NCBI GenBank assembly: GCA_965219455.1
Contig: OZ244744.1
Coordinates: 4,096,001-4,160,000, forward strand
Source: Candidatus Latescibacterota bacterium
GTDB lineage: Bacteria > Latescibacterota > UBA2968 > GCA-2709665
Direction of reading: 5' to 3'
DNA: 64,000 bases
The translations under genes were made by a program, and so were the position numbers. Below the pieces are notes generated by a model. That model saw only the letters and a list, made by a program, of their open reading frames with translations. It did no database searches and was not told where the DNA came from. Positions 15,492 through 19,323 of the stretch are shown here, piece after piece. Numbering within the stretch: position 1 is the stretch's first letter; every line of letters begins with the position of its first letter.

Positions 15492-16874
15492 TTAGAATGG
15501 ATCGCCCGGTGTGTAACTTGCAAATCGTAAAGTCTCGGGCAAAAACGTTAGAAACACGCTGCCCGTCGGGCCGTTGCGATGCTTGCCGATGATGATCTCA
15601 GCCTTCCCCGGCGCAATTGGCTGGTCCTCGTCGTCTACTATGCCGTACACCCCCGGCCGATAGAGAAACGCGACCACGTCCGCGTCCTGCTCGATGCTGC
15701 CGCTTTCGCGCAAATCGGAAAGCTGCGGCCGTTTGTCCGTCCTGGACTCAACGGCGCGCGACAACTGCGCACAGGCGACCACGGGCAGATCCAGCTCTTT
15801 GGCCAAAGCTTTGAGCGAGCGAGAAATGTGTGCGATTTCCTGTTCCCGGTTGTCTGTTCGCTGCGAGGTGGTCATCAGTTGGAGATAATCAACCACGATA
15901 AGGCCGATGTCGTGCTCCAACTTTACGCGCCGGGCCTTGGCCCGCAATTCCAGAATGGAGATGTCAGGTGTGTCGTCAATGAAAATAGGCAAGTCTGATA
16001 GCTTTTCAGCCTGTGCGGCCAGCCTTTGCCACTCATCGCCTGATAGTTTCCTATTACGCAATTCGTGTGAAGGCACGCTGGCTTCGGCGCAAAGCATCCG
16101 TAATGCCAACTGCTGCATACTCATTTCAAGGGAGAAATAGAGCACCGGCGTTTTTTTCTCCTCGTCGACAGCGGCATTGCGAGCCATGCAGAGCGTCAAC
16201 GCAGTCTTGCCCATCGACGGACGTGAGGCAATGATAATCAAGTCCGATGGCTGCAGCCCGGCGGTTATTTTGTTGAGATCGGGATACCCCGTGGTAACGC
16301 CCAACAAGGCGCCGGCCTCCCTTTGGGCTTTTTCGATCAGATCAAGTGTCTCGTGCAGTTTGGACTTGAGCGACACCACGCCCTGTCCGAGTTCGCCCTC
16401 GGCGATCCGGAATACCCGTTGCTCCGCACGGTCTATCACTTCCTTAACATCTTCCGCGTCGTCAAAGCACTCAGTCATCGTCTGTGTGGAAGCGTCGATC
16501 AACCTGCGGCGCTGGGCGCGCTCGAGCACGATTCTGGCATGGTATTCCGCGTTCGCGCTGGTCGCCATTTCGCCGCCCAGCCCGGCAACATAGGCATATC
16601 CGCCCACGTCTTCAAATTGCCCGCGGCGCTTCAACTCCTCTACGACCGTCACCTCGTCCACCGGCAGCCCGCGTTCGGATAACGCCAGGACGGCCGCATA
16701 GACCCTGCGGTTTGCAGTATGGTAGAAAGCCGTCTCGTCGCCCAGGACCTCAATTACCCGACTGACGGCCGTGTTGTCAATGAACATGGCGCCCAGAACT
16801 GCCCGTTCGACCTCCAGCGCCTGGGGCTGCGGACGATCTGCGGATGTCGGTGCCGTCGTTGGTTGGGAAGCCAT
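15492..16874 (-). CDS. dnaB: Replicative DNA helicase DnaB
   Basis: PQALEVERAVLG, ASRPSMGKT Walker A, FSLEM, VDYLQLM, QLSRAVE, DLRESGSIEQDAD and KHRNGPTG. No intein. Confidence 0.97.
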   Translation of the reverse strand: MASQPTTAPTSADRPQPQALEVERAVLGAMFIDNTAVSRVIEVLGDETAFYHTANRRVYAAVLALSERGLPVDEVTVVEELKRRGQFEDVGGYAYVAGLGGEMATSANAEYHARIVLERAQRRRLIDASTQTMTECFDDAEDVKEVIDRAEQRVFRIAEGELGQGVVSLKSKLHETLDLIEKAQREAGALLGVTTGYPDLNKITAGLQPSDLIIIASRPSMGKTALTLCMARNAAVDEEKKTPVLYFSLEMSMQQLALRMLCAEASVPSHELRNRKLSGDEWQRLAAQAEKLSDLPIFIDDTPDISILELRAKARRVKLEHDIGLIVVDYLQLMTTSQRTDNREQEIAHISRSLKALAKELDLPVVACAQLSRAVESRTDKRPQLSDLRESGSIEQDADVVAFLYRPGVYGIVDDEDQPIAPGKAEIIIGKHRNGPTGSVFLTFLPETLRFASYTPGDPF

Positions 16875-16916
16875 AGGGTTACACAATCAAATTGGACCCG
16901 GCGTTCTGTCCCGGGG

Positions 16917-18628
16917 ATTAGAGTCTTACAGTGTGACTTCTACGCAAAATGCGTAGATAATTATTCATGCTGCTTGTTTAGTGGTAGGGTGTTGATGGTA
17001 AAGGGTCAAAGACAAGGCGAGTGTTTTGTGCCCCGCGGGTGTGACGCGCCATCGTCTGGACCGTGGGATTTTTGCAATCAGGCCGCGGACGTGTAGACGT
17101 TTGAGGAGGCGGCTGGTGGCATTGGCGTGCCGAGTGCGTTGCAGAAGGGATGCGGGTTGTTGGAAGAGGTGTGTTCGGATGTCCTGGTTGCGGAAGCCCA
17201 TAAGGGCGTGTTCGCCTTTCAACACAGCGGTAAACAGGTCGAGGTCGTAAAGGTCGGCGGGGTTAAAGCCCCGATAGGTACGTCCCTTGTGCCTGCGTGG
17301 CCGCGCCAGTGTGGTGAGGCTTTGATGTCCGGTAGCGGCGTCAGGGGCTGCGGACAGCGCCTGAAAGTAGCGTTGGTTGGCCGTCAACGAGATTTCCCGA
17401 TAGCGGTAGAGGTTGGCCACGCCTTTGGCCATGGGATACCAGCCCATCACGCGTTGTCCTCGCCGTATGCCCCAGCGGCGAACCTTGAACTGCCTTGGAT
17501 GGTTGATCACTGTTTCGACGCGTAGTACGCACCCGTGTTTGTCGTACATTTTAATCCAGTTCTCACACATCCGGTGTTTGACTCTTGCGCCTTTGTGGCG
17601 TTTGTTTTTGAAGTCCGTGAGGACTTCACCCTGAAAGTTGCCGTGGAGTTTGCGGCCCAGGAAGGTCAAGATGTCCTGGGGAGAGAAGCACAGCACCGTG
17701 TGTCTGAGCAGGTTTTCATACAGCGCCTTCAGGGCGTGGGGGTTTTGGAACATCACGTCGGTGGCGAACTCGGCCTGGTCAACGACCCAGTAGTAGTCCA
17801 TGCCCAAAAGCAGGTCGTTGAGCAGGGGGTTGACCTTGCGGGCGAACGCAGAGAGAATGCGCGGCCAATTCTTGCCCACAAAACGATCGGCAAAGCGTTG
17901 CGCCCGGTCCACATCGGCAATCCAGACAAACGCGTTGTCCAATTTTTCATAGGCGATGCCGTGTTTGTCGAGCTTGCGCGCCAAGAACTCGTGGCCATTG
18001 AGACAGATCTGTACCACCAGCGGGAACCAGGACTGGATGCGGATATGCATCAGTCCAAACTCCCGGTCAATCCAGTAGAAGTAGTAGCACAGGCATTTCC
18101 GTTGTGCGTTGATCAGGCGAGGCCTTCCTTCCCCTGGCACCAGCTTGAAACTCTGGCAGCCTTCCAGGGCCCGAAACACACAGACCAGGCCTTGCGTGAT
18201 CCCATCGCGTTTTGCCAACCGTCGCGCTTCGTCCTCTTTCCTGATGGTGTTGCGTTGCAGATAGATGAACGGGCGCTCGTGCTTGTTTGCCATCGCCTCC
18301 GCGTGGGCTTTGATCGTATCGGAATGCGTCATCACAAAACGCTTGAAGTCCTTCAACAACAAACCCTGATTGCTGATGAACCGCTCCATCGCAGTTCCAA
18401 ATCCCAGCGGCAGGTACCCTTTGAACAGAACCCGATCAAAACAGGATACCACTCCGGTGATTTTTTCACTACATTGGTCCACGAAGTCTTTCACGGCGTT
18501 CCTCCTTCCATTGATGGCGGTGGGTACCACCATCATAGGGGATGAACGCCGTTTTGCATACCCAAAAACAATCTGCTCTTGACTACCACCTATTTGGTTG
18601 CGGCTGAGCAAAGCGAAGCCGCGCTAGG
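16917..18628 (-). mobile_element. Candidate single-gene insertion element with hairpin ends (putative rolling-circle/tyrosine transposon); boundaries approximate
   Basis: Lies between udg and dnaB in a co-oriented housekeeping run. Perfect hairpin TCTACGCA-AAA-TGCGTAGA (16939-16957) at one end and TTGGTT-GCGGCT...AGCCGC-GCTAGG (18594-18628) at the other. No TIRs found. Confidence 0.65.
16965..18494 (-). CDS. Putative transposase/Rep-like protein with C-terminal winged HTH (509 aa)
   Basis: GTG start at 18494 preceded by strong RBS GGAAGGAGG. N-terminal GVVSCFDRVLFKG, central IKMYDKHGCVLRVET, basic C-terminal LKRLHVRGLIAKIPRSRRWRVT. Confidence 0.75.
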   Translation of the reverse strand: MKDFVDQCSEKITGVVSCFDRVLFKGYLPLGFGTAMERFISNQGLLLKDFKRFVMTHSDTIKAHAEAMANKHERPFIYLQRNTIRKEDEARRLAKRDGITQGLVCVFRALEGCQSFKLVPGEGRPRLINAQRKCLCYYFYWIDREFGLMHIRIQSWFPLVVQICLNGHEFLARKLDKHGIAYEKLDNAFVWIADVDRAQRFADRFVGKNWPRILSAFARKVNPLLNDLLLGMDYYWVVDQAEFATDVMFQNPHALKALYENLLRHTVLCFSPQDILTFLGRKLHGNFQGEVLTDFKNKRHKGARVKHRMCENWIKMYDKHGCVLRVETVINHPRQFKVRRWGIRRGQRVMGWYPMAKGVANLYRYREISLTANQRYFQALSAAPDAATGHQSLTTLARPRRHKGRTYRGFNPADLYDLDLFTAVLKGEHALMGFRNQDIRTHLFQQPASLLQRTRHANATSRLLKRLHVRGLIAKIPRSRRWRVTPAGHKTLALSLTLYHQHPTTKQAA

Positions 18629-18642
18629 ACAAACGGGCGTCC

Positions 18643-19323
18643 TTAACCGGCCGCGCCGTCGTACACTCGTCTGAGAAGCTGCAAATCCTGCCAGGCGGGG
18701 CGCTTCCATTGCTGGTTTCGCAGCAGTGCGGCCGGATGATAGGTGGGAATCAGATGAATGCCTCGGTAAGTAAAAAGCCGACCCCGCAGCGTGCCCAGCG
18801 GTTCGTCCGTATCCAACAGTGTCTGCGCGGCGAATCGACCCAGCGCGCAGATTACGACTGGCTGTATGTGTTCAATCTGCCGTTCGAGATAGGGCTTGCA
18901 TGTATTCACTTCTTCCGGCTGCGGGTCTCGGTTTCCCGGAGGCCGGCATTTGATTACATTGGCGATATAGACCTCTTCGCGTTGAAACCCGATGGCCTCG
19001 ATCATGCGGGTCAGCAATGCGCCGGCTGGCCCGACGAACGGCAACCCCGTCCTGTCTTCGTCCGCTCCGGGCGCCTCCCCGATAAACATCACGCCTGCAT
19101 TCGGGCTGCCGCTGCCAAAGACAACGGTGCGCCGACCCTCCGAAAGCCCGCACTTCCGGCAGTCACGGACCGATTCGTGGAAATCGGCAAGCCGTGTGCC
19201 TGCATCCGTGCGCATGAGTCTGAATTCGGTCAGACCATATTCCGCCTGGGTCTGAACGAACGTCCGCACCGCTTCCAGCGTCTCTCTCGCCTCGACGTCT
19301 AAGTCCACCGGTCTCTTACCCAA
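18643..19323 (-). CDS. Uracil-DNA glycosylase family 4 (Fe-S)
   Basis: [34 protein letters not shown] and TYHPAALLR. Confidence 0.93.

Follow-up and report, generated by a model that had tools for sequence, protein, structure and literature searches.

Prokaryotic transposases rely on a handful of chemistries, namely those of the DDE, DEDD and HUH enzymes, the serine and tyrosine recombinases, and Cas1. Members of the IS200/IS605 family, such as IS608, which inserts 3′ of TTAC, have neither inverted repeats nor target duplication, and their unlike ends carry subterminal hairpins; IS91/ISCR elements and Helitrons have one origin-like and one terminator-like end, use a tetranucleotide target without duplicating it and encode a transposase related to the rolling-circle initiators (Reps) of plasmids; and many members of IS110/IS1111 lack inverted repeats and duplication and use specific targets. 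The window analysed here, a stretch of 64,000 nucleotides from Candidatus Latescibacterota bacterium (assembly GCA_965219455.1, contig OZ244744.1, positions 4,096,001 to 4,160,000 of the forward strand), contains on its minus strand, at 16919–18624, a mobile element of 1706 bp, the stretch common to 11 genomic copies. This element probably represents an undescribed family of insertion sequences (IS), whose transposase would combine a tyrosine nickase of the Rep_trans type (TBP fold) with a MarR-like winged helix and would act by a single-strand mechanism.

A sequence-only reading of the same DNA had proposed a hairpin-bounded transposon at 16894–18642, belonging to a poorly characterised IS class mobilised by a Rep_trans-like initiator with a fold other than HUH. 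An element is indeed present there, although the mobile unit is narrower than proposed; the class assignment is supported, with catalysis as a predicted part of it and a rolling-circle mode as one of two candidates, peel-and-paste being the other. The Rep_trans-like reading was set against tests named beforehand, which concerned extra copies, empty sites with exact junctions, conservation of the ends beside homologues and the fold of the protein, and each came out in favour of that interpretation.

Copies, target site and borders of the element

The source genome, assembled as one contig of 5.84 Mb, holds 11 protein-coding copies with 94–100% identity, of which four are identical and each of these lies at a different site; two of the 11 end in a TAA stop codon. 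The block common to the copies was first sized at 1711 bp, and the flanks beyond it are unrelated. Matches to the protein occur in 8 of 31 related genomes, the source genome counted, with 18 in one congener and none in most. The site between dnaB and udg, at which the copy in the window resides, is empty in eight congeners, where only a short spacer separates the two genes. Moreover, contigs of the public runs X2, X3 and X12 provide the exact empty site by joining 16918 straight to 18625, thereby omitting 1706 bases and leaving 3 letters of the joint ambiguous; in the X2 contig, which is 5687 nt long, 219 and 226 nt are matched on either side with 0–1 mismatches. Written in the direction of the gene, the empty site is ..gtttgt CCTAA tccccggg.. 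and the filled one ..gtttgt C-CTA-G CGCGG...AAGACT-CTA-A tcccc... Three other copies are embedded in repeated DNA, and the uninterrupted paralogues of these regions hold 5 bp where the element would be, the best of them, 99% identical, reading ..cactc[CCTAA]cgtcc... All the generic traits of an insertion sequence are thus in place, from multiple copies with shared, sharp borders to empty sites and the presence of one transposase gene only. The interval 16919–18624 is one copy of an insertion sequence that is active or recently active, and the identification of the element as an insertion sequence with these borders and the target described below is close to certain.

Read in gene orientation, the element has the layout 5′-G-C-[hairpin]...tnp...AAGACTCTA-3′. 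On its 5′ side the left end is preceded by a target-derived tetramer, CCTA (18625–18628, minus strand), with the proposed nick 3′ of it, and on the 3′ side the right end is followed by a target-derived A (16918, minus strand), the last base of a CCTA^A target. More generally, the target is CCYA^A, and the element starts with R-N-hairpin and finishes with ..TCTA. Among 38 complete left junctions, taken from 17 genome or metagenome loci in addition to the source genome and two congeners, the tetramer is CCTA in 28 and CCCA in seven, with TCTA, CATA and CTTA found once each. The right end is TCTA in every locus read except that of Paraburkholderia (L073), which has CTTA, and of 31 insertions, 28 have A directly after TCTA, two have T and one has G. 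In the left pentamer the fifth base moves as part of the element: being G or A, it segregates by clade (groups of 4, 2, 4 and 1 copies), the four identical copies and another identical pair having G and the remaining five A, and at the dnaB–udg locus it is A in the empty site as opposed to G in the filled one. It is because this base is element-borne that the element is delimited as 16919–18624.

What, then, is the significance of the CTA found at both borders? At the dnaB–udg copy CTA is all that the two junctions have in common, and in seven insertions of relatives a left CCCA is paired with a right TCTA; the shared CTA therefore reflects similarity of the target to the end of the element, not duplication, and target duplications of 3, 4 or 5 bp were considered and rejected on the same ground. 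Inverted repeats were found at the element ends in none of the frames of the 3-bp ambiguity, so that the absence of both terminal repeats and a clear duplication, noticed in the sequence-only reading, holds. These findings bear directly on the idea that the element is an ordinary DDE insertion sequence of the cut-and-paste kind, its inverted repeats being degenerate and CTA a 3-bp target duplication. This idea could be credited with the CTA on either side of the dnaB–udg copy and with a size of ~1.7 kb with one open reading frame (ORF), typical of insertion sequences. The ends, as just described, are not inverted repeats, the seven CCCA/TCTA insertions contradict a duplication, the transposase models of Pfam and NCBIfam give no match, and the protein has a TBP-like domain with no match to an RNase-H-like fold; a DDE transposase is accordingly hardly credible, its case being close to refuted.

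Besides full-length copies, the source genome contains at least five short elements of 140–300 bp that have both ends and an unrelated interior. Two related genomes, G003 and G007, lack a match to the protein, yet the query DNA matches them at 34 and 27 places, in many cases with the element ends; all eight of the regions fetched from these genomes contain an element with both ends, and the five that were measured by script are 261–266 bp long. The existence of short derivatives with both ends implies that the ends suffice in cis and that the protein must act in trans.

The same observations help to judge whether the element could instead be a tiny integrating rolling-circle replicon, plasmid- or satellite-like and composed of a Rep and an origin, whose integrated forms would be the genomic copies and whose protein would be an initiator first and an integrase by side reaction. 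Two palindromes lie directly 3′ of the rep-like gene, as in the origins of pT181 and of Rep-Arvir replicons, many and indeed most relatives of the protein sit on contigs of 1.7–2 kb, as collapsed repeats do, and the Rep_trans relatives named in the accessible parts of the literature are replicon initiators or relaxases. On the other side stand the 11 chromosomal copies at CCYA^A sites with precise borders and the sufficiency of the two ends alone for the short derivatives; furthermore, contigs that start exactly at the left end (L066, L067 and L068) continue past the right end into unique flank, in the manner of collapsed repeats, and the junction of a circle was not seen in contigs. A replicon of this kind is therefore quite improbable.

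Several features of the copies and of the genome that carries them deserve mention in their own right. Two copies carry another insertion sequence within the right end. One of them, L010, is interrupted there, at G000:C1:4795363-4796915, by a different insertion sequence of 1.55 kb that is present in seven copies with 96.6–100% identity (six further ones, for example at G000:C1:1687631-1689196), has inverted ends CCTCAATG.../...CATTGAGG and a YTAA duplication, and looks IS5-like. In copy L008 (G000:C1:2449997-2451592) a mostly single-copy insert of ~1.6 kb, parts of which are found again at three other places in the genome, splits the right end just past hairpin 1. A flank of L010 (G000:C1:4795149-4795298) holds a repeat of ~100 bp that recurs at ~20 places in the genome with 82–99% identity and represents an unclassified short repeat family. 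A set of paralogous empty sites was provided by an extended array at G000:C1:4390000-4416200, in which diverged repeats, probably of a coding region, follow one another every ~2.4–2.6 kb and one unit bears copy L005. The cumulative GC skew of the source genome has its minimum at ~3.52 Mb and its maximum at ~5.5 Mb or 0, implying replichores of ~2 and 3.8 Mb; since these are very unequal, either the skew is weakly informative or the chromosome has been rearranged. Finally, metatranscriptome libraries labelled 'sponge metagenome' (X12 and related ones, compared over 16700–18850 of the window) contain pieces of the transposase gene together with the empty form of the locus. Contigs of the X12 RNA library cover parts of the gene at a depth of 3–5, which hints at transcription, with DNA carry-over being possible, and the label of the libraries hints at a host-associated habitat.

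Protein family, predicted fold and candidate active site

The transposase gene (16965–18494, minus strand, stop included) is the sole long ORF of the element, encodes 509 amino acids from a GTG start and lies between udg (PF03167, E 7.6e-42) and dnaB (PF03796/PF00772); as the sequence-only reading had it, it comes with its own ribosome-binding site, GGAGGA, at 18500–18505 of the same strand, 5 nt upstream of the start. This leaves 130 bp of noncoding DNA before the start codon and 46 bp past the stop codon. The protein falls into two predicted parts, both on the minus strand: a catalytic domain with a two-lobed TBP-like fold (residues 1–385, 17340–18494), in which the codon of Tyr317 occupies 17544–17546, and a C-terminal MarR/HxlR-like winged-helix DNA-binding domain (residues 386–509, 16968–17339). 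The winged helix-turn-helix that had been suspected behind the catalytic core thus reappears in the predicted structure.

No family in Pfam, NCBIfam or PHROGs covers the 509-residue protein, the sole row being a weak one to MksE (E 0.16) over the winged helix, and hence no DDE or HUH family was recognised in it, in agreement with the sequence-only reading; the curated transposase models of NCBI do not recognise it either. Searches of PDB sequences with phmmer and hmmsearch returned weak MarR-type rows only, and the ESM Atlas unnamed clusters only. Relatives are nonetheless plentiful: 4472 at E<=1e-3 among 8000 candidates scored and, among cluster representatives, 7139 at E<=1e-3, 3404 at E<=1e-10 and 758 at E<=1e-30. 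None of the 120 matches listed has a Pfam domain, and those that bear a name are all called 'hypothetical protein' save one 'CBS domain-containing protein'. The family occurs in Latescibacterota, Planctomycetota, Desulfobacterota, Bacteroidota, Pseudomonadota and Actinomycetota, and its cultured hosts include Paraburkholderia and Rhodococcus. As had been foreseen from the winged helix, misannotation as a regulator does occur, the homologue on plasmid pOLGA1 of Paraburkholderia phytofirmans being labelled 'ArsR family transcriptional regulator'; a non-mobile regulator, as a reading of the gene in the window, is rejected. A second subfamily with 30% identity is found in congeners (G005:C83:13810-15000, locus L015; G001:C2:20610-21836; G001:C4:390065-391261), and its presence beside or instead of the first indicates that several lineages of the family coexist in the genus.

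AlphaFold2, given 95 sequences, predicts the whole protein with a local confidence score (pLDDT) of 94.1 and residues 1–385 alone with a pLDDT of 95.0 and a global score (pTM) of 0.92. Folding residues 1–385 on their own was called for since the winged helix filled the structural (VIA) search with the whole model, leaving Rep_trans outside the top 50. With the domain alone, TBP comes out highest, both Rep_trans structures rank 7 and 8 of 48,161 chains, and the matches also include one phosphoglucomutase, over half of the domain only. Foldseek against PDB finds the same three Rep_trans entries weakly (E 0.009–0.085), with no row at E<=1e-3 for either the whole model or the domain. Against viral models (BFVD) it gives nine matches at E<=1e-3, including TBPs of giant viruses and, at E 2.9e-4 and probability 1.00, A0A345MNV4, described in the accessible part of one report as an Inoviridae replication initiator with PF02486 (PMC13107129). 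The two-lobed TBP-like beta-sheet domain that typifies Rep_trans is therefore present in the predicted model. An HUH motif or fold with a helical Y1 or Y2 tyrosine, by contrast, was not found, there being no match to an HUH or transposase model in Pfam or NCBIfam and the conserved tyrosine lying on a strand of the TBP-like sheet.

Does the putative active site resemble that of the Rep_trans enzymes as well? According to Carr et al. and the review PMC5714925, these enzymes have an N′ aspartate (D46 in RepD, D9 in RepSTK1), a motif I of the form R-x-D-x-A-x-D, a motif III, R-x-Y-x-K, with the nucleophile Y191, and a motif IV, W/L-x-R-x-E, the metal being held by D46, D142 and E214 on separate strands at the inner face of the sheet. 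An alignment of RepD with five diverse plasmid Reps renders these motifs as sFDRmTIvG.L, RLDLAFD, IRIYNK and WRVE. Over 95 homologues of the transposase with 30–87% identity, D20-R21, E242, Y317, R325 and E327 are among the invariant residues, as are Y138 and Y140, while D246, K315 and K319 are conserved in at least 90%. The predicted strands that bear them are cFDRvlFkGyL (12–27), QaEfAtD (235–249), IKMYDK (312–319) and LRVE (323–330), and the invariant residues follow the order and strand positions of RepD: FD20R..F.G.L corresponds to N′, QxE242xAxD246 to motif I (RxDxAxD), IK315-M-Y317-D-K319 to IRIYNK of motif III, with the tyrosine of Y-x-K on a beta-strand as in Rep_trans, and LR325-V-E327 to WRVE of motif IV. 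The offsets of the structural alignments (model 13 = RepDE 39; model 12 = RepSTK1 1) place D20 on D46/D9 if the strand is ungapped, and the candidate acidic ligands D20, E242 and E327 are invariant and predicted to lie on three separate strands. The resemblance of IKMYDK...LRVET to a Y-D-K...R-x-E signature, on which the sequence-only reading had built, thus extends to residues that are invariant or nearly so and, in the model, to adjacent strands, as in RepD.

It is conceivable that the same element and the same transposase employ another chemistry, for instance that of a metal-dependent nuclease or recombinase of double-stranded DNA with crossover in a CTA core and no covalent tyrosine, or that the nucleophile is Y138 or Y140. 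CTA stands at both junctions in the source genome, as in core-type site-specific recombination; Y138 and Y140 are likewise invariant; TBP, the top fold match, binds double-stranded DNA; and the copies display no replication-strand bias. However, the seven insertions with CCCA on the left and TCTA on the right show that an identical core is unnecessary, Y-x-K and R-x-E, which occupy neighbouring strands in the model, reproduce the Rep_trans active site in order when taken with the candidate D and E ligands, and both Rep_trans structures rank as high as stated above, all of which makes a different chemistry unlikely. Judged by its predicted fold, the order of its motifs and its domain architecture, the transposase as a putative tyrosine nickase of the Rep_trans superfamily is well supported.

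The two ends and a proposed single-strand mechanism

Both hairpins of the sequence-only reading exist, and each belongs to an end with a character of its own. The left end (18586–18624, minus strand) comprises the element-borne G-C, a hairpin GCGGCT(11 nt)AGCCGC at 18600–18622 and then AACCAAATAGGTGG; on the plus strand the hairpin is adjoined by GCTAGG at 18623–18628. The right end (16919–16966, minus strand) contains hairpin 1, TCTACGCA-TTT-TGCGTAGA, at 16939–16957, a second, degenerate palindrome AGTC..GACT at 16922–16938 and the terminal CTA at 16919–16921. Hairpin 1, perfect over its 8-bp stem and with a 3-nt loop, folds as DNA with a z score of −4.4, and 0 of 200 shuffles do as well; a role as a transcription terminator was considered and rejected, because no T run follows it.

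The significance of the left hairpin derives from its conservation and not from its energy. A pattern of tetramer, R, one base, a GC hairpin of 4–7 bp and A(A/G)ACC was recovered by script in 19 of 22 loci and by eye in one more (L068). Most left stems are GCGGC/GCCGC, with a sixth pair that varies from T-A to C-G, and, being mostly identical, they carry little information on pairing. The pairing is kept with other stems in the two most distant loci, however, namely CCGG/CCGG in Paraburkholderia (L073, 33% protein identity) and GAGGC/GCCTC in Caballeronia (L075, 26%). At the right end a 43-nt stretch, AACAT.CTACGCA....GCGTAGAAGT.......AAGAsTCTA, could be aligned in register by eye across loci of 46–87% protein identity. 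Palindrome 1 is strong in about half of the loci, and its arms show compensatory exchange (CTACGC/GCGTAG as against TGCGCG/CGCGCA); the second palindrome, AGTCTTA-CTG-TAAGACT, is perfect in L011, in G001 and G009 and in short derivatives, and degenerate in the four identical copies. In the sequences compared, the primary sequence of the right end is thus apparently conserved more than its pairing. The overall layout of the ends is kept across Latescibacterota, Phycisphaerae, Desulfobacterales, Paludibacter, Paraburkholderia and Caballeronia at 26–87% protein identity and holds in at least six phyla, so that the end motifs and the left hairpin accompany the homologues down to 26% identity, as the sequence-only reading required.

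How might such an element move? We propose that the winged helix and the nickase would together recognise the two unlike ends, the left one as R-N-hairpin-AACCA and the right one as palindrome(s)-AAGAsTCTA, and that, with a metal bound by D20, E242 and E327, Tyr317 would cut one strand, the coding one, on the 3′ side of CYA at the left border (flank-CCTA^G...) as well as at the right one (...TCTA^A-flank), and the enzyme would remain attached to the 5′ phosphate. Transfer of the right end to the left end would then yield a single-stranded circle with the junction ..GACTCTA|RC-hairpin.., and the donor strand would be resealed or replaced upon this transfer. In the circle the nick word would lie within a short linker that separates the left hairpin from the last palindrome of the right end, and the reverse reaction would paste the circle into a CCYA^A site without creating a target duplication or inverted repeats. 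A mechanism of this type would account for ends that differ from one another, for insertions with neither duplication nor inverted repeats, for a fifth base that belongs to the element, for the exactness of the empty site and for the mobilisation of short derivatives. Tyrosine catalysis, the strand that is cut, the exact nick position in or next to CTA and the single-stranded intermediate are what we infer, as is any choice between rolling-circle synthesis, IS91-like, and resealing of the donor strand, as in the peel-and-paste of IS200/IS605. It may even be that the element's own DNA between the two hairpins reads the nick word, which is CYA^R in the target and TCTA^R where the ends are joined; the target could in that case be reprogrammed, as in IS608.

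A number of observations weigh against a Rep_trans-like nickase that acts on single strands through hairpins. As for the DNA, the energy of the left hairpin is unremarkable (z score −1.4 in the DNA fold, matched by 15 of 200 shuffles), pairing at the right end is weak or nearly absent in a Paludibacter-like subgroup, and the copies show no bias to the lagging-strand template (five of 11, with the origin placed at ~3.52 Mb by GC skew). No junction of right to left end, as expected of a circle, occurs in the contigs of X1, X2, X3 and X12, although contigs cannot show absence. As for the protein, the fold scores are middling, and the match of the active site rests on motifs, strand order and alignment offsets, not on superposed coordinates. 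Motif II of Rep_trans (T/SxY/ExG) was not found in strands 291–309, whose consensus is K.R.EG.R.KH, and motif I has Q where Rep_trans has R. Profiles are equally reserved: PF02486 (Rep_trans) finds neither the protein at E<=1 nor any match in the whole genome; hhalign against nine Rep_trans sequences is not significant (probability <3%, E 0.02–0.2), the comparison of the family alignment with the nine-sequence one giving a probability of 0.3%; and PF25227 (DUF7845, Rep-Arvir) does not match the protein, whereas it does match the control genome of Haloferax volcanii. The best local hhalign matches of the two halves, on the other hand, are exactly FDR..G.L and IKMYDK/IRIYNK. Of what had been expected of fold and profile, then, the TBP-like fold with a winged helix, neither DDE nor HUH, has stood, and a significant link to the PF02486 profile has not.

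Comparison with known systems

In the full-text literature searched (few subscription journals, with ISfinder outside the scope), no description of a transposase with a Rep_trans or TBP fold was found. We lean towards regarding the family as the first IS family with a Rep_trans/TBP-fold tyrosine-nickase transposase and its enzymes as a third deep branch beside the bacterial Rep_trans and the archaeal Rep-Arvir proteins. If true, such a transposase would add one chemistry to the handful known in prokaryotes, and the Rep_trans superfamily would include transposases next to initiators of replicons and relaxases of conjugation, a breadth already known from the HUH superfamily. Just as HUH enzymes gave rise to IS91, IS200 and Helitrons, the other great family of rolling-circle initiators would then have produced transposons. 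The family is very abundant, with thousands of 50%-identity clusters, yet unannotated, and under labels such as 'hypothetical' or 'ArsR regulator' it goes unnoticed when many environmental genomes are assembled, masked for repeats and annotated for IS. A compact enzyme that would cut and join DNA at a short word beside hairpins is, in addition, a candidate tool for the site-specific integration of single-stranded DNA.

Among transposable elements, the present one resembles IS200/IS605 (Y1 HUH TnpA; IS608, ISDra2) in having neither inverted repeats nor duplication, in the subterminal hairpins of its unlike ends, in its insertion behind (3′ of) a specific short word (CCYA here) with a right end that closes in a similar word, and in its precise empty sites and short non-autonomous derivatives. 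It departs from that family in its enzyme, which has 509 residues and a predicted TBP-like fold and lacks an HUH motif, in hairpins whose sequences are unrelated between left and right, and in the missing lagging-strand bias (five of 11). With IS91/ISCR and the Helitrons (Y2 HUH) the element shares ends that differ from each other, a tetranucleotide target that is not duplicated and a transposase akin to rolling-circle Reps, but the predicted fold of its transposase is Rep_trans-like and not HUH, with one motif-III tyrosine instead of two and no helicase domain; moreover, the copies examined gave no sign of one-ended read-through captures. The similarity to IS110/IS1111 (DEDD, guided by a bridge RNA) ends with the lack of inverted repeats and duplication and the specific target, since neither a DEDD/RuvC fold nor a long non-coding region is present.

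On the side of the replication initiators, the Rep_trans proteins (RepC/RepD of pT181/pC221, RepSTK1, Reps of Inoviridae such as CTXphi and the MOB_T relaxases of ICEBs1/Tn916) have in common with the transposase the two-lobed TBP-like sheet domain, as described in the available part of PMC4797284, the tyrosine of Y-x-K on a strand with R-x-E on the next, the first-strand aspartate in FDR..G.L and hairpin-bearing DNA sites beside the gene. The domain of the transposase, however, is ~385 residues long with long insertions, as compared with ~200, and is fused to a MarR-like winged helix; neither a significant sequence match nor motif II was found, and motif I reads QxE in place of RxD; and the element is chromosomal, multi-copy and provided with two different ends, as opposed to a plasmid, phage or integrative and conjugative element. 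The order of domains, a TBP-fold nickase followed by a MarR-like winged helix, is that of the Rep-Arvir/RepSNJ2 initiators (DUF7845, PF25227) of archaeal pleolipoviruses and plasmids, which, as far as the accessible text of PMC13107129 goes, also display the same Foldseek pattern (giant-virus TBPs and the Inoviridae Rep A0A345MNV4) and hairpin sites downstream of the gene. These initiators were tested experimentally, with Y283, E25 and E303 proving essential, and bacterial Rep_trans proteins did not show the fusion to a winged helix, both according to the same part of that source. They differ from the present family, which PF25227 does not match and which is bacterial, devoid of a third C-terminal domain and housed in an insertion sequence instead of a replicon. 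The family is, as far as its predicted structure goes, a bacterial example of the fusion between a Rep_trans-like nickase and a winged helix, and the element is closest in logic to IS200/IS605 and IS91, in fold to the Rep_trans initiators and in domain order to the archaeal Rep-Arvir proteins.

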